The notes beneath the pieces were generated by a model, which worked only from the letters and a program-made list of their open reading frames with translations, was not told where the DNA came from and did no database searches. A stretch of DNA of 20,000 bases from NCBI GenBank assembly GCA_001662655.1, contig KV460276.1. One strand, 5' to 3'. A program made the position numbers and the translations under genes. This document shows, in pieces, positions 1 through 20,000 of the stretch (position 1 is its first letter; every line of letters begins with the position of its first letter). The DNA comes from Pseudogymnoascus verrucosus. Taxonomy: Eukaryota.

Positions 1-29
1 CTCACATGGCTTGTACGTCGCAGCAATTT

Positions 30-102
30 ATTGCTTTTCGCGCTAGTAGAAAGTACACTTTCCATAAAAGGGAGTACACTTGCCATAAATGGAAACTCAG
101 GT
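30..102 (+). repeat. Dispersed intergenic repeat, copy 1 (dyad plus two 21-nt direct units)
   Basis: 43-83 CTAGTAGAAAGTACACTTTCCATAAAAGGGAGTACACTTGC matches the reverse complement of 9057-9097 at 40/41 nt, and 53/60 over 43-102. Contains tandem units AGTACACTTTCCATAAAAGGG / AGTACACTTGCCATAAATGGA. Confidence 0.9.
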
Positions 103-332
103 AATGTAGAACCATAACCTAATAGGATTTATCTGTGGCCTATAGTAATTGCACAAAACACGATTGCTGTAATATTGTGGTTTTCCTAAGGATACACCGT
201 GTGTCAGCATTCTGACCAAGCAAATAATTATTTCGTAACTTAGTGCATATTCTCAACAGAGTCTGGTAAAAAGTTTCATCATTCCCATTCAATTCCAATT
301 ATTTGGCGTAGCAAAATCCACTCTCTTTACCC

Positions 333-1513
333 ATGAGTCCAATTCCGTACAATATCATCCAGGAGTGGGAACGACAAGTTCTGTCCATGGACGACCCTTT
401 CATAGCTGGAATCCCGAAGATTGAACTCCACGTCCACATTGAGGGAACTTTAACTCCAGAGCTCCGATGGAAACTTGGCCAACGGAATGGCATTTCTCTC
501 GGATCCAAAAGACTTCGGAAAGACTTCCACTCATTAGAGCAATTGAAACAATCTTACGATTTACTCCGACCTCGCAGCGTCAAAGGAAGTGGTCAAGTTT
601 CTGCTTTTTTCGATGCCTATTACGGTGGAATGGAGGTGTTGAGAGTAGAAGAAGATTTTTACGATCTCGCTATGGATTATTTCCTTAAAGCGGCCGCGAT
701 GAAGGTTCGATATTGCGAGCCTTCCTTTGATCCACAAGCCCATACACGCCGAGGGGTCAAATTCGAGACCTTCATGAGAGGGTTCAGGAGAGCGCAAATT
801 GATGCCGACCGAAAGCTCAATGTAAGAAATTCAAATCAGCTTTAGCTTTCCCTTCAGCGCTGACGGGACGTAAGGTCAAGTCGGCATGGATCATGTGTAT
901 GCTGCGAGATATGCCTCCACAGGCAGCAATAGAGCATTACGAGGCAGCTTTGCCATACAAAGACATGATTATGGGAGTTGGACTTGATTCAAACGAGTAC
1001 GATCGGCCACCTTCACTATTTGAAGAACTGTATCTCCGTGCTCGTGCAGATGGATTCAAGCTCACGTGCCATTGTGATGTCACCCAAAAGAATACCCACG
1101 AGCATATTCGCCAAGTAGCTGAATCTGTCGGTGGTACTGGAGCTGAAAGATGTGATCATGGCTTAGACGCTGCAGAGTCCCCAGAACTAGTTTCTCTCAT
1201 CAAGCACAAGGATCTCGGGGTAACACTGTGTCCATGGGCGTATGTGCGACACCATACTGAAGTAGACCTTTTCAAGCATATTCGAACCCTTTTCGATGCA
1301 GGTATCAAGGTTAACATTAGCAGTGATAGCCCGGCATATATGGAAAGCAATTGGGTCACTCAAAACCTTCTATTGGTCCGATTAAAGTGCAAGTTTACAA
1401 ATGATGAGATAGCAAAAGTAGAGAAAAATGGAGTGGAGATCTGCTGGGCGCCCAAGGAGGTGAAGGAGAACATCCTCAGGGAGATAGAGAACTTTTGCAA
1501 TTCTAGCAGTTAG
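333..1513 (+). CDS. Adenine/adenosine deaminase-family metallo-amidohydrolase, 2 exons (333-821, 875-1513), ~375 aa
   Basis: PKIELHVHIEGTL metal-binding motif, FDPQAHT, GLDS, TCHCD, RCDHG, LCP, ISSDSPAY. Intron 822-874 (GTAAGA...CTGAC...AAG) joins the two ORFs in frame. Confidence 0.93.
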
Positions 1514-1811
1514 CAGTCTCGGGGAAATATGCTGTATTTCATATCGAAATCTAAGCTAATATAACGAAGCTGACGTGACTTTGCTTGGGCATTTACTTAG
1601 GGAGAAGAGGTGAGGAAAGAGTGTAAAACGGATTTTCTGGGTAACTTACCTATTATCTTCCGAATCTTATCATCGTTCTTCAATTGTGACCAGTATGATG
1701 CAGCGAATTTTAAAATAAGAGCTCGTAGAGTCGAGTGAGTTGATGAGGTGGCTGGCGTGTTATCGCATGTAACAGCAATATGTCTGGCGAGTGTTTTTAT
1801 AGCAATTTTGA

Positions 1812-2200
1812 TTAACCCTCCACCCCAAGAGATGGTTCTTCACCCTCCATGCACCACCGCCGCTCACTTCTAGCATCTAGGAACTAACTCATTAGGTACG
1901 CCTGCATGGCTTCGCGGTCAGGTGACAGATACCCTACGCATTGCGCTTCCACCGTGACCGCAGTAATCAGTAATATGATCGATGATGCCTTGCCCCCATC
2001 CCGCCCAGCTGTCCAGACTCCTGCGAGAAGTCTGTCATCTTCTGAGGAGAGTCCACATGGATAACCCACCGGACAAACGGGTAATTAAATCCAATCCCTA
2101 GAGCGCTTGTCGCCACGATCGCTGGCTGCGCCAGCCTACTAAGCCATTCCGACAGGATCACTATGATGCACCACTCCCACTTCTATGTCCTCTGTGCAGG
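1812..2200 (-). pseudogene. RecQ-type helicase C-terminal remnant (telomere-linked/DUF3505-associated helicase type)
   Basis: IVATSALGIGFNYPFVRWVIHVDSP...DFSQESG, then an apparent 1-nt frameshift near 2011 into (R)AGRDGGKASSIILL (helicase motifs V/VI). An in-frame stop follows AMQAYLMS. No N-terminal DEAH domain is visible. Confidence 0.8.
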
Positions 2201-2216
2201 CTGACAAACAAGCTAA

Positions 2217-2630
2217 TTGTCTAAGTTCTCCCAACACCCGGACTTTATATTTTACATCTACGATATAATACCCATCCGACAGGCTACAGTAGGGAATTAC
2301 CTCCAGGTTAGGAAAGGTTATTGGTCTCAGGCTACCGCCGACATAGGTAAGTTGTCAGGTGATGGGATACACGTTGCTGCTGCTCAATTCAGGGACAAGG
2401 GCAAGATTTCGAACCCTATTGTTCGTACCCTCATTATCAATATGAGGATCATATTGTCTTTTAACCCAGAATCATATGGAGAGAAGATAGGTCTCCAAAA
2501 CCTCATTTTTGGGAACATTGGTCGTTTATGTATTCCACTCATATGGTTTACACTTAATCCTCAGGATATTGGAAATATATTTTGTGGTAAAACGGGCCAG
2601 GGAGGATATTTCGTAGGATGAGATTAGTGC
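2217..2630 (+). mobile_element. Helitron Rep/helicase N-terminal (Helitron_like_N) fragment
   Basis: FSQHPDFIFYIYDII..RQATVGN...IFGNIGRLCIPLIWFTLNPQD resembles the HPxF...P.IW(F/I)TLNP.D segment of fungal Helitron proteins. Truncated at both ends. Confidence 0.72.
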
Positions 2631-3062
2631 GAGGTAAGACAGAGGGGCTTCAATGAGGTTTGCACTCTTTCCTTCTTCCCACTAAATATGTACAACCTGT
2701 CGCACTAATCTACTAAATCAACCACACGTGCTGGCTACAAAATGAGTAGATGGACCATTCTCACTTGTAAATACCCCAAGGAAGTTGTTGGGTGTATGGT
2801 ACGTCGATTTCGGCTATATTTTTGTGATTGCCAACTGCTTCTAGGGTAAACAGAATGACACACAGAGATGTTGAACGTGAGTATCTCTCAGTCCGGCGGC
2901 CGGGGTACGAATCACCGGAGCGGTCAACCAACTGATACATCAAGGATAGCTTCAATCGAGTATACATTGTCTGGCAAAAATCCGGAGCTGGCGATGCATC
3001 TGGAGCTGGCGATGCGTGAGTGCTCCACGGGCGATCCAATACTTACGTTAAGATCTAGTTGC

Positions 3063-3473
3063 CTAGGTCTGAAGTTGCACGTCTTGATAGAGGCCATCTA
3101 GAGTCCAACGACGTGTAGATGATGCGTGGGGATGGGGGCAGCAGGAAGATACGTGACGAGTGATTGTTTCCAAGTTAATAGTCTGATGCTTGCAGCTAAG
3201 GCAAGCATAGACATGGTAGTCCTCGAGATGGAGGTGGGCGAGCGAGCCGTCGAGACGACAACGGATAGCAATCAGGTTGGGAATGTCGAGAGAGCGGATC
3301 AACGGGGTTATGTCACGCCGAGACTCTGGACAGATTCGATGTTTCTCCCACAAATGTGAAGTTGCCTGAGACTTGGAGACTGCCAAAGGATACTGACATG
3401 ACTTGCAGATCAATGCTAGACCTAGAGGGTCGTACACAAGATTCACAGCAGTCAGCGAAGAATGACCAGCCAT
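3063..3473 (-). pseudogene. DUF3505 (OrsD-like) zinc-binding domain remnant, probably the N-terminus of the RecQ-helicase gene at 1812-2200
   Basis: LICKSCQYPL...SHLWEKH...YACLSCKHQT...ITRH...YQDVQLQT pattern typical of DUF3505. The ORF stops straight after VQLQT and is on the same strand as the helicase remnant. Confidence 0.7.
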
Positions 3474-4065
3474 TGAAACGGATGATGGAGGATCAAAACA
3501 TATATATCTCGACAATAGCAGGGGATTACAATTATATGTAGAAGTTTTATATTCATACAGGAAGATACGCGGCACTCATTTGAAGCTTGGACCTTTCTCG
3601 CGTATTCTGTCAGAATCTGGACCAGCATTAAGGTCTTTAAGGCGGCTCACCCCCCCCCCCCCCCCTTTCAAATGTTGGAGTTCTGCAGTGAGCCAGTGCT
3701 TGCTCAGGGGCCAGGCGACCCAATAGCCAAACCAGCCTCAACCTTTTACTGAAAAAGTCACTTCCCATAAGGGGTAGGAGCCAAATGGTTCTACGAACAG
3801 CCATGAGAGCCGAGCGCACAAAGGAATATAAGTCTAATCCTCGTTCCCCCATTAGTTAGAACCAGCGGATCTTTTCGTGGCCTCCCAAAACGCTCCATCA
3901 CGTGAAATGTCACAAGAACTAACTATTTCAAGTGCAAATTCTGGCATTTTACAACCTTCGACAACAAGGTAGCTTGCTTGAAAATTTAGTCCAGAAAATT
4001 TAGTCAAAAATCAGGAAAACATAGGGCTTGATCATGCGTGTCCACTAGCTAGGGCTCTATATTTT

Positions 4066-5969
4066 TCAAAACTGATTTCTGTTGTCAAACCCTGTGAGGG
4101 AGATTTTGAGGGAGACGAACTGAGCGATTTCCACGCGGTGCCAAAATGACTTGCAGAGAACTTCCGACATCTGTTTTGTCCATATCAGGCCTATCAGGCA
4201 TTCCTCAGCATCCTTCCAACTCTCTAACTTCATTCTGCCCATAATATTGGCCACACGCTCCGCCAGCCACACCTTTTCAGACTCGGTCAAGGAGACTAAA
4301 GAACCTATGCAAAGCACCCAGAAGCTAATTCCTAGCGAAGCTTCATCAACAGGGTTCATTAACCCTCCTTTCTCATAATTATCTATCAGCCTCTGCTTCA
4401 GGACTCTGAGGACAGCAAATGTTGGTGAAAACTGCCGTAAGGTGTAGTTAATGTAGATCAGTGCGGCGACATAGTATCCTTGACACGTAATATAATTCTG
4501 CTGCGTCCCAGGCCACTGATCCTGTTGCCTTAGAAATGATAGTAAACGGCGCTCGAGAGAAGATTTCATTTTACTGAAGCTCATCATTTCTCCCGTGGTG
4601 GCACGGCGTCCCCCTTTAAAAGAGTTCATAATAGAAGTCATCGTACGCAGATCATTTAATACCATCATCGGATGATTGTGGAACCACAACGGAAGCACAC
4701 TGTCAGGAATACCATGCGTTACAGAATCATTTGCTCTTGATCCTCTAACAAAAGACCTAGAAGTAATATATGGGAGCGTCGTAATGCATTGAACTGGCGG
4801 AAAACGGGGAATAGAACTGGCTATCGTAGAGGAAAGCGAGTCTTGACTGTGCGTCGTTAACATCTGGTGACTATTACTATCTTCACCTAGGAACTAAATA
4901 CCAAGAAATGAGCATGTGTAGAACACCATGCATGCCTAATGCTTGTAGGCCACCTTTAAGAGTAACCATCTTCTTCAAGGCGTCCATGTGAAGGTTTAGA
5001 TCCTTGAGGTTTCCATTTATAATCTGTCTCACAGTGGTATAAATTAGTGTACAGGCCATTTAAATGTTTTAACGCAAATGCATAAGTGACTTACCTCATA
5101 TATAGCCATTAAAGTCACAGCTCCAATTGTTGAATCGCTTAACCTGTCTGCCGAAGAACTCAAGTTCATGTTGATCAACTGAATAGCCTTACCACGATGC
5201 ATAAGTGTATCTGAGCTACTGCTCTGGCCATGTAATATATCAAAATGAGCAGCTGCGAAGAAGAGTGTGGCATGAAATAGAGCTTGGTGTGCTATTGCCT
5301 CCCTAGCAAATACTATCTTTAGAGGATTTGCACCTTGGTCAGTGCTGACTGAGAGCAACGCTGGTGCAAAAACATCGACAACTTGAGGTTTAATGTCAGT
5401 CATGTCAACTGAATAGGAGCAATACTTACAATGTGACAGAAGATAACTGGCCCGATAAGAGCTTGGATTAATGTCCGGAAGCGTGTTGAATGGGTCTATC
5501 GACCCAGGCCCAAGTAGTGTCTTGGGACCACTACGGGCGATAGATATCTTGTTTAGCAGATCTAGACATTCAGGCATCTGTTCGGATTTTCCAGATAATT
5601 TGTTCAGGGAGGTTCTCGGTATAGGTAGCTTCTCCCGACTGCTTGATGCTTCTCCTGCGTGGCTGAACAGACATTCTGTGTCTGGATAGCTGTCACAAAA
5701 CAATTTTATAAGCGTTATATATCTAATAAGCACCTAGACATGACGAACCTCACACGATGATTCGTGTCATAGGACGGCCTAAACGGCATCGGTTGACGAT
5801 GTTTCAATTTGGCTCTCACTCTCCGCTGTACGTGCTTCATAGCATGTGATCGAACAACGTGCTCATTTTGTCTCTTCTGACTATAGCCAGGTTTTGTCAC
5901 AGTTATGAATTGTAGCTCAGGGTCCTCTTCACGTCCAGATGCCTCGAATCTAACGGGGCCGGAATACAT
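4066..5969 (-). CDS. Fungal-specific putative transcription factor (fungal_trans_2/DUF3468-like) lacking a Zn2Cys6 cluster; exons 5969-5734, 5689-5430, 5381-5095, 5023-4902, 4846-4066; ~561 aa
   Basis: Four GT-AG introns give a continuous frame (1686 nt). Motifs: FITVT...VVRSHAMKH, GSIDPFNTLP, ALFHATL, SDSTIGAV, HMDALKKMVTLKGGLQAL. An alternative in-frame ATG lies at 5999. Confidence 0.8.
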
Positions 5970-6223
5970 ATTGCCTGATTGATTCACGGATTGTCGCATG
6001 CGACTCGAGAGTTTCTTGTATGTTAATACGAGCCACGAAATAATAGATGAATGCACTCATTTATTATGATTGTTTGCCCTGGAAGAATAGAGTCGTTGTG
6101 AAGGAAATATGCTCTGCCCTGGCTGGTGGCGAACAGAATAGTTTTGTCGCCAAATCGTCATTCGCCAGCTAGAGCGTATTCGGGTATCCACAGTGAGTAA
6201 GCAACATGTGGTAAGTTAAGTTA

Positions 6224-7020
6224 ACGTGGTTTAACACCCGAGCGGCGCACCTAAACGAGTCGCGCACTTCCCGTGACCCTGATCACAACTATACTCAATT
6301 GTAGCACCACAACAGTCCTAATTAATTGAAACTAATCAGAACCATATACATCAGGTATCTCTTCATCTTTGTCACAAGTTGTTGCATAGTGTGCGGGCTT
6401 TCCGCAGTTGATACAGGATCGCGGACCCCGCTCCGTCCTCATCTTCTGACTACTATTCTCCCGCGTTTCCCGGCCTAACTACTCGTCTACATCTTTCTGG
6501 GCTATCATATCTTGTCCCTCTTGTGCAATAAGCGGTTATCCAAGTCGTACACGTACCTTTTTAGCTCTCCGGCGTTTGATTAAGGCTGCATTGCATATTA
6601 CAGTGACTGAACCTGGGCATTCAAGAGCGTAACTGTATGTGCTAATGCTTGTGTTCCCTTTGCAAGCCAATCAACAGCTTGATAAATTGGTGTTAGCGAG
6701 CTGCCCCGATGACTGGCAATAAGGCTTTAATAAAAGCTAACTGTGAGACAGCTTCTATTGGTTGTGAGTTGTCAAGGATGTCCAAGGATCGGCAGTTACA
6801 AGAATAGGGCTAGTTGGTTTCGGAGCCTGATCCTCCAAATCCTGCCCTGATACTGGTTTCGCCTATACAGGCAAAGAATGCAGCCTTAAATGCAATAAGG
6901 AAGTCGACCTTAGTCGCGTGGTTAATGTGTGACTTCATGAAGCCTTCAATCTGACGACCATACGCCCGCTTTAATGGACTAAAGCATCCAACGTCAAGTG
7001 GTCGAAGAAGGTGTTATGAA
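6224..7020 (-). mobile_element. 3' half of a degenerate pogo/Fot1 (Tc1-mariner) transposon with one TIR
   Basis: Minus-strand HLLRPLDVGCFSPLKRAYGRQI (DDE_1 end) near 6950-7015 and C-terminal knuckle CINCGKPAHYATTC near 6375-6415. TA at 6222-6223 is followed by TIR-like ACGTGGTTTAACACCCGAGCGGCGCACCTAAACGAGTCGCGCAC. Confidence 0.85.
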
Positions 7021-7434
7021 AAGTTGTACTTAGATGCTCTTGCAGAGCTTCTGCTTACTACAGCTATGTATTTAGCTACTATACCAGCTAACTGGTGGGC
7101 TCGGCATACCTTTCCATATCCTCGGTATGGTCATGATAACGTACGTCTAACATCTTAGAATCACTTAATAGATCTCGCTATCATGGTCTAGGTGTAGGTT
7201 TGGCTAGCAGAATACACGACCGCCATCTGTAAATCGACAGCGGTTAGACGTACACCCTTGTATCTTACAGCTCCGCCGGAACTGTGATGGCATATATTCT
7301 TAGATTGTCTTATAAAATTATTTGATATTGTAGCTTCTGCATTGACCGCAAGGCAGTTGTTTGGACAACTGAAAAAGACACCATTTGGAAAGTCAATCCA
7401 AATATTCTAGTCACCATGACATAAGCAGGTCCTC

Positions 7435-8514
7435 TCAGTTATTAGAGGAGGGCTTTCTCGCTAAAAGTGCCACCGGAGGCCAATGATAGATGGCTCCTTT
7501 TTTGGTCTCTGCGAACAGATCAAACAACAGTTGCCGACATTCCTTTTCATTTAGAATGGAAAGCTGTCCACCTTTCAATTTCGGTATAGCCTGAAGCAAT
7601 TCAACGTGGCCGGATAAATATGTATTTGTACACAATGGAACAAGGCTGGGACGAAAAGCGCTAGTTGCGCAGTCGATTACTTCTAAGCCAACTGCCTCTG
7701 CATATTTGTCGATTTCTCCTACCCAGCTACCAAAGCACGATTAGTGACTAGGAAACAGTGTTTTCCATTGTTTTCTTACATACTTGAAAATAATATTCGC
7801 ATCAGTGAAAATTGTCTTAGCTATGCGTTCGAATTCTTCGGCGACGGTGCCGTTGATGAAATTTCGTCCCAGATGCGCCTCTTCCCATTGGATATACCCG
7901 CCAGGTTCTGTAGATTGAAGTAATCAGCTATTACATATATCTTAATTGAACTGGGAAAGGAGATTATACTTAGCAGATTCATTGCATGGCGGATCAACAA
8001 ACTAGGATCGTCACCTTTCACAACGCAGCACCAGAACCGAAGGTGGACCACGTCGTACTTTCCTGCTAGATGAGGGGGTATATCTCCGAAGGCATCAAGT
8101 ACGTTTAGGCTTATGTTGTCAGCTAAGACAGCTTCCGACGGATACTGGCTACTGGAGATATCATAGCCATCTAGCTGTATTGTCTTTGGCAGATGCTCTG
8201 CCAAGTCCAAAAGCCAAAGACTATCTCATAGTCAGATTGGATATCTCTTAAAAATGCAGTCGTAGTATGCATACCCTGTTCCAGTTCCAATTTCTGCGAT
8301 CTTCATACCCGGACTGATAGGAATCTTAGGATTTAACGTATACCCGTTATGAAGTGTCCACAGGAGATGCTGCGCATCCAATCTAACAAGAACTGCTGTT
8401 ATTATCCGATTCTTTTTTTAACCGTGTCGCGGGGGTGTCATCTGCGAACCTAACAGAACCATACAAATCCCGGCCGAGGACGTAATCCTCTAATCCTGTC
8501 GACGAGTTTTCCAT
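7435..8514 (-). CDS. Class I SAM-dependent methyltransferase (LaeA-like/Methyltransf_23-type); exons 8514-8450, 8382-8275, 8220-7970, 7907-7784, 7726-7435; ~279 aa
   Basis: YVLGRD...RLDAQH, IAEIGTGTGLWLLDLA (motif I), LDGYDIS, KYDVVHLR, LLKPGGYIQWEE. All four introns are GT-AG and preserve frame (840 nt). Confidence 0.9.
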
Positions 8515-9037
8515 TGCCTCTTTGCTAATTGAGAAGTTTTTTCATATAATATATGTATAAGTTACTCATAACGTAGAAAAATGTATGCCAAAATATATAG
8601 TTGCTGGTAAAACCTTTCGTGAAAATTCTCCTCGTGAGCTTATGTCAGATATAAGCTAGGCCGTAGACAATGAATATACGCGCACGCCGTTCGACTTCCA
8701 TTCTAGTTACGTTTACCTCGAGCCGTTACAGGTGGGACCAGTATACAAATCCATGCCTTCCGATAGCTGTCGGATACGGAAGGTAATAGTGGGTCGAGAT
8801 CCTAGAAATGTATAGCCGCCTATGCAGAGTACATGGTAAGCAATGTTGATATCACATGCGAGAAGCTAACTGTTTTAGGGCTGTGGGGTTAAAAAAAGAG
8901 GCCATTGATAATCATAAAAGAAATACTACTTCAAGTCACCGACAGAGGATACGAGGGTGACTTATCCTAGTCGAGACTCCCAAGTCCCTCTTGGTTCCAT
9001 TGATGTATTACGCTGGCTTAAACTACTCCAACACTAG

Positions 9038-9135
9038 ACCTATGTCTCTATATATAGCAAGTGTACTCCCTTTTATAGAAAGTGTACTTTCTACTAGGGC
9101 TAAATACGACCAACTAGGTCACTGCAAGCACATGC
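9038..9135 (-). repeat. Dispersed intergenic repeat, copy 2
   Basis: Reverse complement of copy 1 (40/41 in core 9057-9097). Contains a perfect 8-bp-arm dyad TAGAAAGT-gt-ACTTTCTA (9076-9093) abutting CTAG. 9118-9135 matches 11437-11454 at 15/18. Confidence 0.9.
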
Positions 9136-9766
9136 TCGTGAGACCCAGATCAAACATCTAAAGCAGTCCGGTGATGACCCTAGTGGCTACAAGTAGGCGT
9201 ATGCTTACCAATTTGTACAGTTACATCACTAAGGTCCTGGACTCAAAATTCGCATGAATCAGGGTCTGTACTCTGTATTAGAGTATTATTTTCGTACTCT
9301 TAGCTCTTGATATTTATTTTTGCAAGTGGGAGTTATTCTAAGCGAATTATTACATTGCTCGCTATGGCCCTTCCCTTGAACTCTAATGTCCCTTCCATCG
9401 ATGATTTAACCCCGTCCGGCGGAATTCTACGAACTGTCACCCAAACTATAGGGCCACGGTGGTCCCCTCGCCTAGGGAAGGCCACCCACCAGTCCTAGCA
9501 ATACCGCTGGGTGTCGTGAGACTCCGGTAGACGCCGGACCTTTTCCTCACATATATATAAGGGAGTTGGAAGTGAGCGGCCACAGTCCGATATAACCGAC
9601 TACCTTGCTTTATACTTCTGTCCTGTCCACAACTCTCAAACCTAACCCATAAAGAACAAATACTGCTCTCGACCATCATATAAGATTCACTTTCCGCTCT
9701 TCTTCTTCCTCCCCTTCTTCTACGTCTTATTCTTTCGCCCACCACACCCAGTCAATTTCCGCCACC

Positions 9767-11178
9767 ATGGACGCCTTCTCTGCTCAAGCCAAGGCCCTCA
9801 TCAAGACGAACGACGAAGCTGGCCGCAAGAAGATCCTGGACACTCTGCGCGACCTCTGCTACTCACTCGAATCCGCCCAGGACTCGGCCCAGAGAATCAT
9901 GTACCTCGTACAGCATTCATCCGCTCATAACCCTTTTTGTTCCCTGCTAACACGCGGGTAGCAACTTCAAGTCGCAGCTGTCCGGATCGGTTGTGACCTC
10001 AAGCTCTTTAATATCCTCGCGGAGACTCCAACTCCCCTGACCGTGGACAGCCTGTCAAAAACGACTGGTGCAGCGCCAACACTTCTAGGTAAAAGCCTAC
10101 TGCGGGAAATCTATCTACATTTACACTGGCACAGCGACTGATTAGCGCGCCGCGTAGCCCGCATTCTGCGCTACTTGGCCTCAGTTGGTATTATCAAGGA
10201 GACAGATAAGGATACCTTCACTAAGAACAACATCACCCAGACCTTCACAAACCCTGGATTCCAGGGTGGCATTTACCATTAGTGAGTAGAGGTAGCACCT
10301 CCCGAACTCCATCTCGTTACTGACCATCTACAGCCATGACAGTATCGGCCCTGCCATAACGGCCCTCCCCGACTTCCTGAAGGAAAATAACTACCAGGAT
10401 ATCACAAGCGTTGTGCATACCCCACTCCAAAAGGCATGGAACACAGATCTCCCCGCCTTCATCTGGGTTCAGACCAAGCCGGAGAACTTTGCCCATTTCA
10501 ACCAGTTCATGGTTGCTCAGCGCCTGGGCATGCCTACCTGGCTAGATGTCTACCCATATCAGCATAAGGCAGAGAACTTGAAGCCAGAGCAGCCATTCTT
10601 TGTCGATCTCGGTGGTGGTCTTGGACACCAGAGCATTGCTCTACGCGAGAAGCTACCTGACTTGCCCAATAGGATCATTCTGCAGGATATCCCTGCGACT
10701 CTAGAGCATGCCATCAATCACCCAGGCGTGGAGATCGTAGTGCAGGACTTCTTTCAGACTCAGGTTATAGCAGGTACGATCATTCTCGCAATGCTCTTCT
10801 CTCCCACAAACCTTTACGAAAACATGTGGTGGTGCATGAAGCGGCGATGCTCACTCCTCACTAGGTGCAAAAATATACTACATGCGCAACATTATACATG
10901 ACTACCCCGAGGACAAGGCTATTCTCATCCTGAAGAATATAATTGCAGCCCTGGCAACAGACTCCGTTATCCTGATTGACGACATGGTCATTCCCAACTC
11001 TAGTGCCCACTGGCAGGCAACTCAGATCGACCTGGTCATGATGATGTCATTAGCCTCCCTGGAGAGGACCAAAGAGCAGTGGCACGAGCTTCTCGAGAAG
11101 GCGGGCTTAAAAATCAACAATATATATACCTACACTGCCAGTCTGCAGGACAGCATCATCGAGTGCGTGCCGGCTTAG
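9767..11178 (+). CDS. O-methyltransferase (Methyltransf_2, OmtB/secondary-metabolism type); exons 9767-9907, 9962-10088, 10158-10281, 10334-10773, 10865-11178; ~381 aa
   Basis: LLARILRYLAS dimerisation region, FVDLGGGLGHQ SAM motif, ILQD, QDFF, YYMRNIIHDYPE, ERTKEQW. Four GT-AG introns keep frame (1146 nt). Candidate TATA (TATATAA) near 9554. Confidence 0.95.
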
Positions 11179-11436
11179 ATGGAGATAATTTTACATAGAT
11201 CAAGCTGCGGTTATAATCTGACGCTAGTGGTTCACTGACAAGACAGCGTGATTCCTCGTCCCGTATTCTCACGTCACCTTATTCCCCTGATCTTAGCCCA
11301 ATTACGCACGCGCAGTGGTACCTGGGAATATGTTTCTGGGGTCGCACCCTGAGCTTGATGCTCGGGCTTGTGGCAAGGACATGTAAATGTAGCACTCGTT
11401 GATCCACTTCAAAGGCTAGTTTCCCCTTCTGCCAAG

Positions 11437-11530
11437 GCATGCGCTTTCAGGGACGCATATATTGTATTTAACGCTAGTGAAAAGAACACTTTCTATAAAG
11501 GGAGTAGTACACTATCTGTAAAGGGAGTAG
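11437..11530 (+). repeat. Dispersed intergenic repeat, copy 3 (more diverged)
   Basis: ATTGTATTTAACGCTAGTGAAAAGAACACTTTCTATAAAGGGAGTAGTACACTATCTGTAAAGGGAGT: same CTAGT, ACACTTTCTATAAA, GGGAGT and second AGTACACT unit as copies 1 and 2. Confidence 0.8.
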
Positions 11531-11880
11531 GGCCGAGGATGAAGCTAGCAAGCTAGCAAGGAGTGCAAATGCCTTTCCTGGACTAGTGTAAGGCTAATGC
11601 CTCTTAGCATCAGGCTAATATAGTAGCACTATGTCATAATAGGATATTGGTATGAGGCCCGCCACCAAAACTAGCAGGCATGACAAGTTCTGATCTTGTT
11701 GCATAGTTGCGTGTTTGCGTGCGAGAATGAAGCGTATTACCGACTCGTGATTAAAATTCGAAATTGAAATACCGGACAGAGTAACGACTATCACTGAACT
11801 AACTTCGGAATTTTCAACAGCATACTATAACCAAGAGCTTGACCAATTACTTGGTCATACACACGACTGTGGTGGCTACA

Positions 11881-13814
11881 ATGGCTTCTAGTTCTGTATC
11901 AGGCTTTTTCCAAGAGAGGCCCAAGATCTCGAATCAACTGTATGAGGATGTTGCATTAAGTCGAGCATTTAAATGTCAGATCACTTTCGCACACTAAAGT
12001 TCCAATAAACAGCTCTTCTAATTGAATCCTAGCATACCTTCCACCACAAATACAGCAATCAGTCTCATCAGATATCTCGCGATTTGCGGAGGTTGTGCTG
12101 TCGAAGAGGGTTCTGGATTGGGTGGCGGATGCCGAACGCCATCCGCCAGTTTTAAAATCTTGGGACACCTTTGGCGAGAGGAGAGATGATCTGGTGACAA
12201 GCGAAGGCTGGAGGAAACTCCAGGATCTGGGTGTTCAAGAAGGCATTATTGCTATCCCCTACGAGGTTAATGAAGGCCAATATAGCAGGGTTTATCAATT
12301 CTTGAAGTCAGTGCCAGCCCTCAGAAACAAGACAGACATCTCATACTGACGCCGACCTTAGGTATCACGTCTTCAGCGGCAGTTCTGCATATGTTATATG
12401 CCCCTCAGCCATGACAGACGGAGCAGCTTCTCTTCTGCTGAGGCACCTGAAATCAAATTCTCTTCCCGCTTCTGTCCGGCCCATATTAGATTCTGCTTTC
12501 AAGTGTCTCATCTCCCGTGATCCAGCAAAGGCATGGACCTCGGGTCAATGGATGACGGAGCGAAAGGGCGGCAGCGACGTATCTGGAACCGAAACAATAG
12601 CCGTAATGGCGGATAGCCCCCTGAAAAATAGCAGAGGTGTCGATGGCTCCGACCTTGGCCCATATAGCATTAGCGGCTTCAAGTGGTTCTCCAGTGCTAC
12701 AGATTCCAACATGAGCATCCTACTCGCACGGTCCCCTAATGGTAATGTATCTGCCTTCTACGCACCAATGCGCCGCACAGTCCCTTGGACTACCGATGGA
12801 CAAACCGAACTTAATGGTATACATATACAACGTTTGAAGAGCAAACTTGGGACGCGCGCTGTACCCACCGCCGAATTGGAGCTCAAAGATATGCGAGGGT
12901 ACCTACTGGGCACTGAAGGTCAAGGAATTAGAGAGATCGCCGTGATGCTGAACATAACGCGCGTACACAATTCTGTCACAGCTCTGGGCTTTTGGGGTCG
13001 TGGCCTAGCCATCAGCAAAGCATTTGCACGGGTCCGTAACATCGGAGGCAAGCGCTTGGTGCACATACCTGCGCATGTAATGACGATGGCAGAGCAAGAA
13101 GTCGAATACAGAGGCTACATGCAGCTGACCTTCTTCACGGTGTTGTTACTCGGGATTTCTGAACAGGGCTCAAGCAATGCTTCATCCGAGCGAGCACCAG
13201 CAATGGCACACGGGTCGCTGGCCAAGATCACTCCTAGCTTCGAGGATGCGCGATTGTTGTTACGGGTTTTGACGCCCGTCATCAAATCTCTGACAGCCAA
13301 GGCAGCAATCGCTGGCTTGAGCGAGTGCATGGAATCACTGGGAGGAGTAGGATATCTGGAGAATGATGAGATGCAATTCAATATCGCACGTCTCTTTCGC
13401 GACGCATCCGTTCTTAGTATTTGGGAAGGGACGACGGATGTTATGGCTATGGATATGGTGAAGGTTCTGAAAGGGCATAGTGGAGTAGATGTGTTAAAGG
13501 TTCTGGAAACTTGGCTGATGGCAGCTGGGGATGCTGCGGCCCACCGTGAGTGGGTAAGATGGGCTGGAAAGGTCAAAAGTGAAGGGCTGGAAGAACTCAA
13601 AGTCCAAGGAAGACAGATTATGAGGGAACTAGGAAAGCTCATCGCGGGTGTCTTGCTTCAGGTTGACGCTGAAAGGGATGGAGATGAAGTCGCAAAAGAG
13701 GTATCACGGAGATGGATTTGTAAGTCGGTTAACAGAACAAGGGGATCCTGGCAGTCAAGGTGTATGTGGGACAGGAAGATTGTTTTTGGCAGTTCCGACG
13801 AGGCAAAACTGTGA
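11881..13814 (+). CDS. AidB-like acyl-CoA dehydrogenase family flavoprotein; exons 11881-11974, 12033-12306, 12362-13814; ~606 aa
   Basis: CPSAMTDGAA, SGQWMTERKGGSDV, GFKWFSSA, RLKSKLGTRAVPTAELEL, MLNITRVHN, ECMESLGGVGYLE, IWEGTTDV. Two in-frame GT-AG introns. Confidence 0.93.
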
Positions 13815-14893
13815 GGGTCGCATGAAAACACTTCAAACTCCCTCTGAAAAGTTACCGCATTGCCCCAACCTTCTTACTGACTACCAGTTGGATAGGGAAA
13901 CCAGGTTTCTTTTGCTGCTTCGACTACAATTTGTCCGAATACTTTAGTTGTATATCTAGGTAGTTAGTAGATAACTCCACCTGAAAAGCAACGTTGGAAT
14001 TACCGGAACTGACAAATACCCGCCTCGTCTGCTTTCCAGGCTCGCAAAATGGCGATGTCGCCCGTGATAGACTCCTCAGATTGTAAAGCTTACCATTTAA
14101 AAATAAAAATTGAAAACCCTCGTCTCCCTCCCCCTTTCCTTTTTCTAACTGTTGCTTTGCCGATCGCTCCGTCCACCGGTCCAAGCCGTACGGATATACC
14201 ACCAGATTGGAGCAAAGTGTCTTTAAGTCAGGGATATCAGTCTCCATCTTTCGAAATCTACAATTAAATGGAAAAAAAATTGCGGTCATCCTAGGCTACA
14301 TACTTGGTGGATTGCAAGCTAGAACATGTACATAATAAATGCTGTAGAAGCGATATACGAGAGTAGTAGGGGTATTCGATATGCTCCGAGTTTGCTTGCG
14401 TCACGAGGGTGGTTTAATTCACGTTGTATGTTAAACTTACCTTTCAAGAGATCTCGAATAACTATCGTAACTACAAGTGATGAAAGGATCCAGCTACGGT
14501 GGTGTGCAAAAGCTTCGGTTCTCGAAGATGCGCATCTTATAGATATGATGTAGAGGAAAGAGATTGATTGCCTTCAGACGGTTGGATGGCGCCGAGTCCT
14601 GTTCCGTTCAACTAACTTACAGGTACGACCCGTGTCACCCACCATGCAAGCCTTACCCAAAGCATACTCAACGGACAGTACAGTAAACACCTTATTCTTA
14701 TTCTGTGCTGCACACTTCACACATCAATATCACAAATCGTACGGCGTATAACAAAAGTAGGGAGGGCTACATGTCTGGTAGTCAATTCCAAACATGTAGC
14801 CCCTTAGAAGTCCTCCAACCCCATTGCTCTAATCTTTTCAATCTTCCCCATTCTTCGCACTTTTCCTGTTTAGCCGGTTCAGCCCCCTTCCTC

Positions 14894-15629
14894 TTACTTT
14901 TCGTCTTGTTCGTGCCTATAGCTGAATGTCGAGACGTCGAACGGTAGTGGATCTGAAGTCCTTGTCTGGCACCCCTCCCATTCTCTAATACCAGACCCGG
15001 AGTAAGTCGACTCGGGGAATTCACTCGTGTGCTTTGTTCGGAGCGTTGCAAGCTCCTGCTTAGCCGTGGCGTACTCCACTTGGAGCGTCTGGTACGATAG
15101 AGTCAGTGCACTGTGTTGCTCTTGCAGCTCCATCAACCCCTCTTCGATCTCCTTCATCCGTTCCGCTTTCCTGGCGCGGAATTTTCGCTGCGAGGCTCGA
15201 TTCTGAGCCCGTCGGCGCTGGTGGGAGCGTCAGCCAGTCTCTACATTGAAATGACAGCATCTTCTACGTACCAAGTTGACATATGGCGGGAAGAGCTTGT
15301 CGCCTGTGCTTTTTTTCCTTCTGCAGACCTGCGTCTCGTAGAGGCCTTCCACATCGAACCCCATCGCTACTGCTGTTACGGGATATTGCACTGGGTACGC
15401 ATTCCGCAGGAGCGTGCTAACGTGATTGCCATACATATTATCAAACCCCTACCAGAAGCGTTAGCTATATACTGTTTAGTTTTGGCAGATTTTGGGCCTT
15501 TACCGTGGCATGTGAGGGCGAGACTGTCGAGAATTCGCTTGATGTGCCATGAAACATCCCACCGCTGATGTCTGCAGGCTTCAGGTAGGACTGAATATTT
15601 GTAAAGTCGCTGTCGTACTTAGCCGTCAT
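14894..15629 (-). CDS. bZIP transcription factor (AP-1/Yap-like basic region); exons 15629-15504, 15448-15272, 15217-14894; ~208 aa
   Basis: RRRAQNRASQRKFRARK basic region followed by heptad I/L repeats (IEEGLMELQEQHSALTLSYQTLQVEY). Two phase-0 GT-AG introns with CTAAC/CTGAC branch sites. Confidence 0.85.
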
Positions 15630-16690
15630 TTTAGATAGAAGTTCAGGGGAAGGCCGGCTTCAATGCGTGTACGAGACTGTCCCAGCGGCAGAATGCAACT
15701 CGTCGACTCTGGACTGGATCGACTCGGCCTTTTACTGCAGACTGATTTTGGAGGGTACAGTAGTCCAAACCTTGCTCTCCTTCCCGTATGAGAGACAGAT
15801 ATAGCTTATAGCTAGGGCTCTTCGGCTTGGAGAGCGTTCGATGGCGGGGGTAATGCCTCTCATGGAGAGGCCGAGACCTTCCGGATACGCGACTCAGCGC
15901 TTCGTACAGAACCCGGAAGCCAATCACCGGGCGGTGGTCTTTTAATACAGGAGGCTGGCCCGCCTGCCTAGATCTAGCAGGGTCTTGAAACAAGCCCTCT
16001 CAAGGTGTCATCCAACGAGCTCCCGCATCGTTACCAGAAAAGATAAAACTGTTGACCGAGGTAGGTCACTTATTGGGGCATGTCTGCATAAATCGTATTG
16101 GATTGATTGATTAAAGAGCATAATAAGGATGCCCATCTTCTGAAGCTATATGGGATTCAGGGGTTACGGCGTAGCATCGCCTAATAAGGAACCAGGGGTT
16201 GAGTCTAACAAAAACCGCAAATAAAAAGCTGGCTTGCGGACGTGGATTACATGGTAGAGATAAGCAAGTTGTAGATACGCATAATTGTACCAACGCACTT
16301 GCTATAAAGGTGCTTTGGATATCTCTTCGAAATAAGAGGTAGACACTTGTGGAAAGATTGACGCAGCTACTTAAGATTGGAGCGAGAAAGATGGTACGAG
16401 GATCAAAGCATTTCCTTGTAGTCCGAAACGGGTTGGTCAAGCATCTGCTTAAGATTATCATGTCCGGGAACGCTAGCCGGATGTAGAATATGCTATCCTT
16501 GCAACATTTCTTGTCCGGGGTCACGGTAACAGAGATCAGAATATTATCTGCAGTTATGATTGGTCGTGTGCTTAACGTACTATGAGCTATAAAGGTCTCT
16601 GGCACCTTCTTCTACAGTATCCAGCAATTGCCTATTCTGAAAGTTCCGACCTCCAACTTTTATCAGTCGAACAATTGAGCATCAACCAGG

Positions 16691-17319
16691 ATGGCCCATT
16701 CGTACAAGTCACAGTACCCAACAAAGGTCGTCGTCGATGAGGAAATCGTGCAGTTTTTCGAGGACTTCTACCGCATATCGGACACGCCAGGTGTGCATGA
16801 GGAATATGCCAACTACTTCACCAAAGATGCGACTTTCATCCTAGCCTCAAAATCAATCAAGGGCTATGAGGGTAATTATATTCCCTTACTCCAGGGCGAT
16901 ACTGCTGGCCGTGGTGTAATTTTTTTTCTTTGCAACGCACCAAATATGCATCTACTAGCTGAGTCTTCCGCTAAATTTGTTCATGCAAGCTTTCTTATTG
17001 GACACCACCTAACAAGGAGCAGAAATTCTCGCGGCCCGTAAAGCCATGTGGACCGCCGTCGCCTCACGCGCCCACAAGCCGATTAAGGTCTTCCCATTCG
17101 GACATGTTTCTACGGAATTCATGCTTTATGGGACCGTGTCCTATGAGATGAAGGACGGGAGGAAGTCAGGCCTTGATTTCTCTGCTCGAGCAAAAATGGT
17201 GCAGATCGAGAAGCAGTGGAAAATACAAGATTACCAAGTTTATATGGTGGGTCAAGTTTAGATCAGGAATCAGAGTGAGCCGTATATGACTGATGGGGAT
17301 ACAGGATACAGCAGCATAG
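16691..17319 (+). CDS. Small SnoaL/NTF2-like fold protein; exons 16691-16871, 17023-17246, 17305-17319
   Basis: IVQFFEDFYRISD..GVHEEYANYFTKDATFI...MWTAVASRAH...FMLYGTV...YQVYMDTAA, a conserved small fungal NTF2-like family pattern. Introns are GT-AG and in frame. Confidence 0.8.
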
Positions 17320-17528
17320 CAGCCAAAGTAGAGAACGCTGAGGCGTCTTACTTTAACGATTGTTAAAGGCTGATAGAAGGACACAACAGGACCAATACAT
17401 GATTAATAATCTAAGGGGGAGATGCTTTGAAATCAATGTTTTCGCCAAGGACTGATAATCATATGCCATAAATCTGTTCCTGTTCTATTTTGTGATGTAA
17501 AGATTTGAAGAATACCATACTTAGACCC

Positions 17529-18149
17529 CTATAGCAGCCCATCTGTCTTTTCTTTTCGGAAAGCAATAGCCAGCTGTTAAATTTTAGCTAAAATTTTGGG
17601 TATATGTGAGATAGACGTACTGGAAATATTTGGACCTATCGTTGATGGTTAGCATCGTTGGCCCCGCATAGCAAGAAGTTATATCAAAAACCTTTTCCAA
17701 GTTCCACACACCATTATAGTAAATATCCGCTTGGAGCTTTGCAATCACCTCTTCCTTCGTCGTAGCATTTGCAACAAGGCAGCTACCGTTAACCACTTGT
17801 CCCTGGCCTTCCTCCGGCGCTTTTAATAGAGCACCTTCCAGCGACAATTACAGTTAGTCGCTATAAAGTACCGCAAGCACTCCTAGGTATGGAGACAAAT
17901 ATGCAGAAATGGGAATGATTGGAGCGCAAACCTCCCATAGTCCAGAATCCAGAAGCGATATGTGGTACCAGTCCCTGCAGATGTGCTCTATGCTCTGATA
18001 AGCTCATGTTCGTTTGATAAAGCAGGAGGAGGTAGAAGGACAGATGATAGAGGTGCATACTCTCGCCCAGCTAGTCGCTCCCGCCCCACGTTTTCGTGAT
18101 CGGAGATTATAACGAGCCAGTCTACTAGCTTTGTTGCATCTGCTGTCAT
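17529..18149 (-). CDS. YCII-related dimeric alpha/beta-barrel protein; exons 18149-18061, 17987-17932, 17834-17692, 17635-17621, 17573-17529; ~115 aa
   Basis: WLVIISD...RLAGREAHL...GGALL...GSCLV...EEVIAKLQADIYY.GVWNLEKVQIFP. Four GT-AG introns give a continuous frame (348 nt). Confidence 0.8.
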
Positions 18150-18614
18150 ATTGCCTGTTGCTTGGATTTATAGGTGTCAATGGCTGACGATAAGTAGAGT
18201 AAATATACAGGAGGTATTATATGATTAGTCTATTCAGAAGGTTTAAATAGAGCGAAGATGAGGTAACGATGGAGAATTAACTTTAGGCGGGTGGATAATC
18301 CAAAATATAATTAGTAAGATCCGCACTAGGGGCGAAAGTGTCGGAAGCCACCGTAAATGCCGTAGCAAGCGGTCAAATTACCATGGATGCACATTCATAT
18401 GCGCCGGCAGAATCCTTGCTTTGTTATACGACGGCAAGTTGTTTGCCACAGTATACGAGCACTTGTGTAAGGGTTGAATCCCTTATTAGGTGGTCTATCC
18501 GCCTATCCAAGATTTCCGGTTAAGGGGTGGCACACTGAAACGATCATCTTCGTGACCACCAAAGAATGTCAATTCTACAACGCTTACTTTAACAACACAA
18601 TTATATATAGAATA

Positions 18615-20000
18615 ACGTATTTCCCGTACGAGTGGCCCACCCGAACGAGTGGCCCACCAAAACACCAAAACGCGTCAATGTGACTATAGTCAACAATGCC
18701 ACGACCAACACAAGCCAAATCCTCTAATCAAGAGGATAGAATACTATTAGCTATGCAAGCAATTAAACAAGGCCAGTTTCAAAGTGTCCGAGTAGCTGCA
18801 GCATCGTACGATATCCCTCGAACAACACTACGTCGACGAATTCAAGGAATGACATCCCGACGCGATTCTACACCTAACTTACAGAAGTTGACTCCGTACG
18901 AAGAGTCAGCTCTTGTTCAGTATATCCTCGACCTAGATTCACGTGGATTTCCACCCCGGCCACAAGCTGTACAAGAAATGGCTGACCTTCTACTCTCTGA
19001 ACGAGGCGAGAGCCCTGTTGGGAAGAACTGGGCTACAGGCTTCATAACGCGTCGTACGGAAATCAAATCAAAGTTTAGTCGGAAGTACGACTATAAACGA
19101 GCAAAATGCGAAGATCCTAAGATAATTCAAGAGTGGTTCTCTCTCGTACGAAACACAGTTGCAAAATACGGCATCTTAGAGTAGGATATCTACAACTTTA
19201 ATGAAGCAGGTTTCGCAATGGGAGTTATTGCTACTGTAAAGGTAGTCACAAGCTCAGAAGCAAAGAGCCGTCCAAAGACTATATAGCCAGGAAATAGAGA
19301 GTGGGTGTCAATTATCTAAGGTGTCAATTCGTACGGATGGGCACTCCCGCCGTTTATCATTTTTAAGGCGCAGAATCACCTCTCTGCTTGGTACGAGGAC
19401 TTAGAATTACCAGACGATTAGGTGATTACACTAAGTGAGAATGGGTGGACTTCAAATTCAATTGGGTACGAGTGGATCTAACACTTCGATCGACATACAA
19501 GCACTCGTACGATCGGAACCTATCGCCTTCTTATTCTTGACGGATATGAGAGCCACCTCTCAGCTCAATTTCAGCACTACTGCATAGAACGGAAGATAAT
19601 CACCCTCTGTATGCCACCACACTCCTCACACATTCTTCAGCCGCTTGACGTAAGCTGCTTTGCTCCACTAAAGCTTTCGTACGGACGTTAGATTAAAACC
19701 TTCGTACGGAACAGGCTAAATCACATTACGAAGCTTGAGTTTCTCTCTGCATTTAAAGAGGCATTTAAAGCTACATTTACAGAGCAGAACATTAAGAGCG
19801 GGTTCCGAGCTACAGGACTAGTTCCGTACGAGCCACAGAATGTCCTCTCTTACTTGAATCTACACTTGAGGACTCCAACTCCTCCTATAGTTGAGAGTAA
19901 CAATTGGACTTCAAAGACTCCTCAAACTATAAGGGAGCTTGACTTTCAAACAGAGCACGTTAGGAACCGCATTATACAGCATCAGAATAGCTCTCCTAGC
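18615..20000 (+). mobile_element. pogo/Fot1-family (Tan1/Pot-like) DNA transposon, RIP-mutated, truncated by the window end
   Basis: TA (18613-14) then TIR ACGTATTTCCCGTACGAGTGGCCCACCCGAACGAGTGGCCCACC (18615-18658) with internal direct repeat ACGAGTGGCCCACC, followed by a transposase frame from 18696. Confidence 0.95.
18696..20000 (+). pseudogene. Transposase pseudogene (HTH_psq + CENP-B HTH + DDE_1)
   Basis: SVRVAAASYDIPRTTLRRR, EESALVQYIL, YNFNEAGF, LLILDGYESH, PPHSSHILQPLDV. In-frame stops at 19182, 19284, 19317, 19419, 19479 and 19689. Confidence 0.93.

Follow-up and report, generated by a model that had tools for sequence, protein, structure and literature searches.

The stretch of DNA analysed here (the window) is a 20,000-nucleotide (nt) region of Pseudogymnoascus verrucosus, whose positions are given 1-based over the whole stretch. 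It contains three copies of a short non-coding repeat, which lie near an adenosine-deaminase-family gene, a putative methyltransferase gene and an AidB-like acyl-CoA dehydrogenase gene. We consider it narrowly probable that this repeat is a promoter fragment which was spread by a transposon and is used as a promoter by the genes that it precedes in the sense orientation. The copies and the genes around them are the following, where RIP stands for repeat-induced point mutation:

1–102, plus strand: copy 1, with the core at 43–98, a short dyad at 46–63 and 21-nt units at 52–72 and 73–93; its left end is perhaps outside the window
9038–9135, minus strand: copy 2, with the core at 9097–9057 and RIP-type changes relative to copy 1
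11437–11530, plus strand: copy 3, with units at 11483 and 11506 (period 23) and likeness to another contig from about 11395
99–140, plus strand: second block, resembling 11612–11659 behind copy 3 (p 0.04 if searched freely and 0.0025 if selected beforehand)
333–1513, plus strand: adenosine-deaminase-family gene, matching VE01_09956 (375 amino acids), downstream of copy 1
7435–8514, minus strand: putative methyltransferase gene (weak Methyltransf_23 match, E 0.029), downstream of copy 2
9768–11178, plus strand: O-methyltransferase gene VE01_09960, divergent from copy 2, with its own TATA-like box at 9554–9566
11881–13814, plus strand: AidB-like acyl-CoA dehydrogenase gene VE01_09961, downstream of copy 3
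4066–5999, minus strand: Fungal_trans_2 transcription factor gene, with no copy of the element upstream

The repeat and its copies

Copy 1 (43–83, plus strand) and copy 2 (9097–9057, minus strand) are identical at 40 of the 41 bases of the core, and in blastn the match widens to 67 nt at 87% (36–102 against 9104–9038, E 3e-18), with copy 3 matching at 11437–11527 over 70–92 nt at 73–74% (E 3e-9). A profile hidden Markov model (HMM) built from any two of the copies recovers the third one (E 4e-13, 8e-18 and 1.5e-12), and the copies reach 97–110 bits against a best score of 5.9 bits in 60 shuffled windows. Given that the 42 nt on the 5' side of the core are also alignable between the copies (p 0.0005, 0.0035 and 0.02), the shared element has some 100 nt; in copies 2 and 3, homology reaching as far as about 100 nt upstream of the core is not significant (p 0.097). 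The three-copy element reported by the initial annotation is therefore borne out, by the blastn and HMM comparisons and the shuffle controls alike. This annotation recognised the repeat as such, but overlooked that it occupies multiple loci and that it bears RIP-type scars among transposon relics.

Further loci were sought in four runs (X1–X4, of the 12 that contain part of the stretch), which were compared with positions 1–18500 at 80% likeness. X1 is possibly the window's own source, with an assembly of 32.7 Mb, and it holds one further locus on copy 1 (the paralog P) and three further contigs over copy 2 at 9071 (882 = 214 + 208 + 237 + 223), in both cases with single-copy-like depth. These three contigs, which share about 45 nt each with copy 2 as implied by the mean depth of the bin, represent two or three loci, given that two of them may be overlapping pieces of a single one. 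The total thus comes to six or seven copies of at least 80% likeness in the 32.7 Mb, i.e., the three in the window and three or four further loci. Extra contigs on copy 1 are also found in X2 and X3, and on copy 3 in X3. In addition, a spurious Joint Genome Institute (JGI) protein, P0277, reads a copy-3-like stretch from 11395 at 91% following 73 residues of unrelated sequence. The most extensive likeness is that of P:

10–256, plus strand: stretch common to copy 1 and P, with 32 substitutions and 8 gaps (X4 record 23); the same variants are found in X1

In X4, this match lies in the middle of a contig of 6287 nt, with unlike flanks on both sides. As the element occurs at several loci with unlike flanks, it is a low-copy dispersed repeat.

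Other strains keep copies 2 and 3 where they are in the window. Copy 2 is bridged by contigs of X2 (3704–11495) and X3 (8619–9164), and copy 3 by one of X4 (10626–12202), and the annotated fusion protein of strain F-4520 (P0124) runs across copy 3, which lies there between the same two genes. A contig of X3 also spans 68–1693 in one piece. There is no coverage in X3 at 4320–6170, and almost none in X4 at 257–9030, which is not evidence of a difference, given that no contig joins the two sides. The depth of X4 rises from about 14 to about 35 at 12173–12202, inside the AidB-like gene, as would be seen in a mixed sample or with two alleles.

Two diverged contigs of X2 exit the window at 368, at codon 12 of the deaminase, and then run into 22 nt that match 1607–1628, shortly past the 3' end of this gene, with two mismatches, which was reached in none of 200 shuffles. 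This looks like an internally deleted deaminase in copies of a duplicated unit, far from the core, whose link to the core-bearing loci is a candidate one. The left arm of an inverted pair at 1613–1634 and 2652–2673 (22 nt at 82%) is this same stretch at which X2 rejoins.

Outside of the fungal runs, the core pattern had no matches in viral contigs, prokaryote genomes or plasmids. In metagenomes there was a single match, L001, which falls within a coding frame of bacterial type and is put down to chance; among the 84 loci (744 kb) that served as a negative control, only L001 scored below E 5. P0278 and P0279, found by a protein search with the translated frames of the element, are repetitive false matches. 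Literature searches, which covered articles without their supplements and without Repbase, Dfam and the Starship databases, found no description of the element, and it is apparently not a described one as far as this literature goes. The main text of a comparative genome paper on the genus, in the parts available, makes no mention of transposons (PMC4438637), and the available portions of PMC13004909 hold nothing on such a motif.

RIP-type mutation

From copy 1 to copy 2, four of the seven CpA/TpG sites are mutated to TpA, against none of the 20 other C/G sites (p 0.002), and around copy 2 the composite RIP index reaches 0.69, against about -0.8 in two coding regions. The change from CpA to TpA is the signature of RIP, which marks repeated DNA; it is this pattern, and not the presence of RIP genes in the species, that the assignment is based on. 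Given the direction of the pattern, the state of copy 1 and P is the likely ancestor, and the route by which a CATA word becomes a TATA word is laid open.

The tandem unit and its CC(A/T)6GG boxes

What the copies conserve is the tandem 21-nt unit, rather than a fold. Each of the units of copy 1 includes a box of the form CC(A/T)6GG:

62–71, plus strand: box of the first unit, a candidate Mcm1/McmA site
83–92, plus strand: box of the second unit, likewise a candidate site for Mcm1/McmA

By sequence, these two boxes are two helical turns apart. The strict box is present in both units of copy 1 and in neither unit of copies 2 and 3, with both units of copy 2 having the relaxed form, which arises in 0.7–1.1% of 20,000 shuffled units. 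Both boxes of copy 1 fall inside a stretch which is invariant in P. Among the 25 of 32 differences between P and copy 1 that were listed, none is located in 58–98 and 22 are located in 99–225 (Fisher p 0.002), and the downstream part of P differs at about 17%.

The flank of the boxes is not known to correspond to any cofactor site. CC(A/T)6GG is described as the site of McmA in Aspergillus nidulans, where it is bound together with a cofactor (PMC5468973), and sites of Mcm1 and its cofactors are described as occurring at fixed spacing (PMC2253631). In copy 2, the same letters may be read as TATA boxes, and the TATA-like box of the O-methyltransferase gene (9554–9566) shares 12 of its 13 bases with the unit's 3' half. 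The box reading and the TATA reading together point to promoter DNA. The initial annotation had named the local bZIP and Fungal_trans_2 proteins for binding assays, in place of which we infer that the candidate would be a MADS-box factor acting genome-wide or the TATA-binding protein.

Two possible single units were found elsewhere in the window:

3747–3778, plus strand: possible decayed single unit, with no co-oriented gene downstream; its HMM score is matched by one of 60 shuffles and it scores below 8 bits by the unit matrix
16292–16312, plus strand: possible isolated unit, some 380 nt ahead of an open reading frame at 16691 (plus strand); it has one mismatch to the 16-nt consensus (0.01 expected), and its matrix score is reached by six of 40 shuffles

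One and the same perfect CC(A/T)6GG box is found at 16180–16189 and at 18481–18490, in opposite orientations, where the two sites have no wider likeness and lie in or beside multi-copy stretches (16049–16195 and 18338–18500).

Genes downstream of the copies

The distance from the core to the start codon is 250 nt for the deaminase (ATG at 333), 543 nt for the methyltransferase (8514) and 351 nt for the AidB-like gene (11881), and the starts of the deaminase and of the AidB-like gene agree with the annotated proteins. The homology to P ends at 256, 77 nt before the ATG of the deaminase, so that the repeat occupies most of the proximal upstream region of this gene. According to the initial annotation, each copy points at the next start codon, and all three are indeed co-oriented with the gene which follows at these distances, but copy 2 is uninformative in this respect. 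It lies between divergent genes, the methyltransferase at 543 nt and the O-methyltransferase at 711 nt, and either orientation would therefore face a gene. The chance of a sense-upstream placement 200–600 nt from an ATG is, for random non-coding sites, 0.125 per copy, i.e., 0.002 for all three and 0.016 for the two informative copies, for a range that was picked after the fact and with the DNA to the left of copy 1 lying outside the window. No co-oriented copy precedes the O-methyltransferase, transcription factor or bZIP genes.

VE01_09961 of P. verrucosus and the AidB-like frame have 100% identity, and the genus has a second AidB-like paralog at 55–56%. At 90%, the clusters of the AidB-like protein, the O-methyltransferase and the deaminase have seven members each, those named being from P. 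verrucosus, VKM F-4518, F-4519 and F-4520. The nearest deaminases outside the genus are those of Seiridium, Clonostachys and Hyphodiscus (73–75% identical), and some records of Seiridium and Clonostachys are named or fused as NACHT proteins; this patchy distribution of the deaminase possibly reflects horizontal transfer. In F-4519 and F-4520, the O-methyltransferase and the AidB-like protein are annotated as one fused protein, whose linkers translate intergenic DNA, and these fusions look like annotation artefacts. Two further open frames, 13924–14295 (minus strand) and 16679–17340 (plus strand), have no Pfam match, and the second one resembles a small spliced gene.

Known element classes, recombination sites and fold

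The surroundings of the copies were compared with the ends described for several classes of transposable elements. For Helitron1, the rule is a CTRR end before a T, with a hairpin 10–12 nt upstream and homology that stops there (PMC5148889). Here, the CTAG is followed by C, G and C (minus strand), the hairpin abuts it and the homology runs on for about 40 nt, which departs from the CTRR-T rule. For FoHeli/Helitron2, the elements are described as having either a TCAG-hairpin start and an ATATTTT end, or a TGCCT start and a CTCCTGT end (PMC5148889), and neither of the end words ATATTTT and CTCCTGT is found near the three copies, nor is an asymmetric inverted repeat. With regard to miniature inverted-repeat transposable elements (MITEs) and terminal inverted repeats, positions 1–332 hold just a 12-nt internal pair, and there is no shared pair around copies 2 and 3. 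No target-site duplication was found when copies 1 and 2 were taken together, in 5-nt steps outward, the left flank continuing beyond the window.

A solo long terminal repeat (LTR) has TG...CA ends, a target duplication and uniform likeness along its length. Only the core is shared here, a lone TGTAG...CTACA pair (11388–11880) has unlike flanks, and P diverges at 256. The initial annotation had named a match to the terminus of a known transposon or MITE as one of several findings that together would overturn its reading, and the sequence around the copies conforms to the end rules of neither Helitrons nor MITEs nor LTR elements. Starships are described as having a DUF3435 captain at the 5' end and direct repeats (PMC11162782); no DUF3435 captain is found in the window, the contig beyond it being outside the scope.

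With regard to recombination, none of the eight joints listed for the four runs (three of them independent) falls on a core, and these joints show no synteny breakpoint at the motif, which is a check that the initial annotation had suggested. The nearest events lie some 70–80 nt before the core: a joint of X3 that rejoins at 11406, and a change of flank at about 11395. They may mark the left edge of the repeat. A contig of X2 ends at 11485–11495, inside copy 3, and the short loose end, which repeats the 3' letters of the unit, fits an alteration in the number of units. Neither the annotated frames of the window nor its 140 intergenic frames yielded a recombinase.

The description of the element as structured has to be given up. 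The fold z-scores range from -1.58 to +0.65 on the six strands, none of which is significant, and the dyad is broken both in copy 3 and in P (G49C and A57G). Rfam gave no matches at the gathering score, and thus neither a stable conserved fold nor an Rfam match, by which a structured RNA or single-stranded DNA element was assessed, is present.

Transposon relics in the region

The window also holds the remains of several other mobile elements:

1970–2182, minus strand: C-terminal relic of a RecQ-type helicase (Pfam Helicase_C E 1.4e-5; recQ E 4e-9)
2217–2618, plus strand: relic of a multi-copy coding repeat, as a lead only possibly a Helitron Rep region; its sole Pfam match is Helitron_like_N (E 0.09–0.12, 116 amino acids)
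3063–3575, minus strand: OrsD/DUF3505 relic, multi-copy (8 contigs in X2 at 3253)
6335–7013, minus strand: pogo/Fot1-type transposase relic (DDE_1 E 0.0012), 69% to the pogo copy at 19623–19765
18615–20000, plus strand: pogo/Fot1-type transposon with six in-frame stops, all TAG or TAA and RIP-like

From these we infer that the window is a transposon-rich accessory region. The RecQ and OrsD/DUF3505 relics (minus strand) flank the Helitron-like relic (plus strand) in 1970–3575, and the three are probably nested decayed transposons. The frame of the relic at 2217–2618, about 700 nt behind the deaminase, is kept in the diverged contigs of X2, with four synonymous changes in five codons. Searches of the Atlas and PDB with this relic gave nothing, and the search for relatives of the deaminase, the O-methyltransferase and the Helitron-like frame in prokaryote and viral contigs yielded no fungal locus. 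A tandem repeat of 17 nt lies close to the start of the pogo element at 18615–20000, and 2885–2974 and 18338–18427, which are pieces of another dispersed repeat, are joined on opposite strands within about 1 kb in X1, X3 and X4.

Origin and role of the repeat

In the reading that we prefer, a promoter piece of about 100–250 nt, possibly the deaminase's own, would have been copied around the accessory region by a transposon, which would have acquired and dispersed it in the manner of Helitrons, with a Helitron-like element as the leading candidate. A MADS-box dimer (Mcm1/McmA) would bind to each box alongside a partner on the neighbouring 7 nt, and the changes from CpA to TpA would turn some of the boxes into TATA-like boxes. 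Copies landing sense-upstream of a gene, at a few hundred nt, would then be kept, serving as its promoter or adding to it. The likeliest cases are the deaminase and the AidB-like gene, which probably use the repeat in this way. The portable promoter module proposed by the initial annotation stands in so far as the repeat takes up most of the region just upstream of the deaminase, holds two perfect boxes there and has a core better conserved than its flank, which supports such a module; the shared regulon and its expression side are predictions from the sequence.

A number of points weigh against this reading. The box motif was recognised post hoc, copy 3 has no strict box, and CC(A/T)6GG boxes are not enriched in the window, where nine were found against 6.3 expected and 31 of 200 shuffles reach nine. 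The conservation of the core could equally stem from gene conversion or the binding of a transposase. The Helitron_like_N match is at noise level among the 140 frames, the RecQ relic separates the Helitron-like relic from the deaminase, and no Helitron, MITE or LTR end is found around the copies. The idea that copy 2 had exchanged an SRF-type box for one of the MEF2 type by compensation, for which the MEF2/Rlm1 consensus was used, was dropped, given that RIP accounts for the change. Finally, mimps were present in every SIX promoter examined in Fusarium oxysporum, and yet proved dispensable for expression, as described in PMC3599309.

This last case lends weight to a possible, although clearly less probable, explanation, according to which the element is neutral and its units are subterminal repeats bound by the transposase or Rep protein of a decayed element. 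The copies would then lie near these genes for no other reason than that transposons accumulate in the region, like the mimps near SIX genes, whose deletion left expression unaffected (PMC3599309). The RecQ, Helitron-like, OrsD and two pogo relics and the other dispersed repeats of the window are what would be expected in this case, as are the RIP-type scars and the limitation of most extra copies to some 45 nt. However, a core far better kept than its flank, the retention of copies in place in other strains and the co-orientation of both informative copies upstream of intact genes (0.016) speak against a neutral relic, and no terminus was found for it. An unlikely alternative is that the genes reached this place each linked to a copy of the repeat, and that successive captures built the region. 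The repeat would then form the 5' end, including the promoter, of a gene-capturing transposon not described so far, which would time and again take up whole intron-bearing genes in the sense direction and put them under one tandem MADS-box promoter, a single element thus both building up an accessory region and co-regulating it. The presence of three of the six or seven copies within 11.5 kb of a 32.7-Mb assembly is suggestive in this sense, although the extra copies may sit in the same region and the clustering is then not independent. The few named Pseudogymnoascus strains in the deaminase and AidB-like clusters, with outside deaminases at 73–75%, agree with capture, as do the deleted duplicates of the deaminase unit in X2 and the different flank of the copy-3-like stretch from about 11395 (P0277), near the X3 joint at 11406. 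On the other side, the copies have no common 5' end, neither a 3' end nor an empty site was found in the sequences compared, and the O-methyltransferase, transcription factor and bZIP genes are without a co-oriented copy.

The two readings based on recombination or inversion fare considerably worse. That the element is a site-specific recombination site, either an integron-like att or loxP/FRT-like, is very unlikely: it has a short dyad and a direct repeat, like the site of a tyrosine recombinase, and the X2 contig ends in copy 3 at 11485–11495, but this break repeats the 3' letters of the unit, as a gain or loss of units would leave it, copy 3 and P have a broken dyad, and no recombinase frame was found in the window. 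The integron-like site suggested by the initial annotation accordingly finds no support, with none of the eight listed joints on a core and copies 2 and 3 bridged in other strains. Least probable is a composite transposon of 9.1 kb with copies 1 and 2 as its terminal inverted repeats, given that, although the two form an inward-facing inverted pair (67 nt at 87%), their outer parts are less alike than the core, the outward 5-nt steps reveal no target-site duplication, copy 3 is left unpaired, contigs of X2 and X3 run through copy 2, and the runs compared show no strain in which the two outer flanks are joined at one target site.

Comparison with known systems

The repeat bears on how acquired fungal genes gain promoters and on how accessory regions are assembled. 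If it does drive its three neighbours, it would provide a compact and testable case of a transposon-spread promoter under a general regulator, with RIP reshaping the sites, and the core could be used as a marker of accessory genes in Pseudogymnoascus, as the mimps are in Fusarium. If it is neutral, it would be one more small repeat for the transposon library of the genus.

In its boxes, the element resembles the composite sites of Mcm1/McmA (SRF-type MADS-box proteins), described as having a CC(A/T)6GG box beside a constant short flank at fixed spacing (PMC5468973, PMC2253631), but the boxes of copies 2 and 3 are imperfect here and the binding is predicted only. As a promoter carried by a repeat, it has a close parallel in Helitron-N1_AN, which, according to Cultrone et al. 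in 2007, reportedly carries the xanA promoter in Aspergillus nidulans. In both cases, as far as the account in PMC4289320 goes, a fragment of an enzyme-gene promoter is located inside a small fungal repeat, and the duplicated versions found here seem to hold the upstream region and first codons, but there are no Helitron ends here and the fragment precedes three unrelated intact genes. The HelibatN3 elements of bats are likewise described as a transposon-spread promoter with a few N-terminal codons, upstream of unrelated genes (PMC4778049), although these are thousands of copies of a defined Helitron, as opposed to six or seven copies known from sequence alone.

With regard to the elements of other fungi, the mimps of F. 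oxysporum are also small repeats that consistently precede unrelated accessory genes where transposons abound, but they have terminal inverted repeats of their own and a known parent (PMC3599309), in place of which this element has a conserved tandem box. FoHeli/Helitron2 elements are similarly fungal and low-copy, with short partial ends near accessory genes, but their described end sequences and asymmetric inverted repeats (PMC5148889) are absent here. By analogy, then, the repeat is placed like the mimps and would work like the capture of a promoter by a Helitron, with ends that fit neither class.

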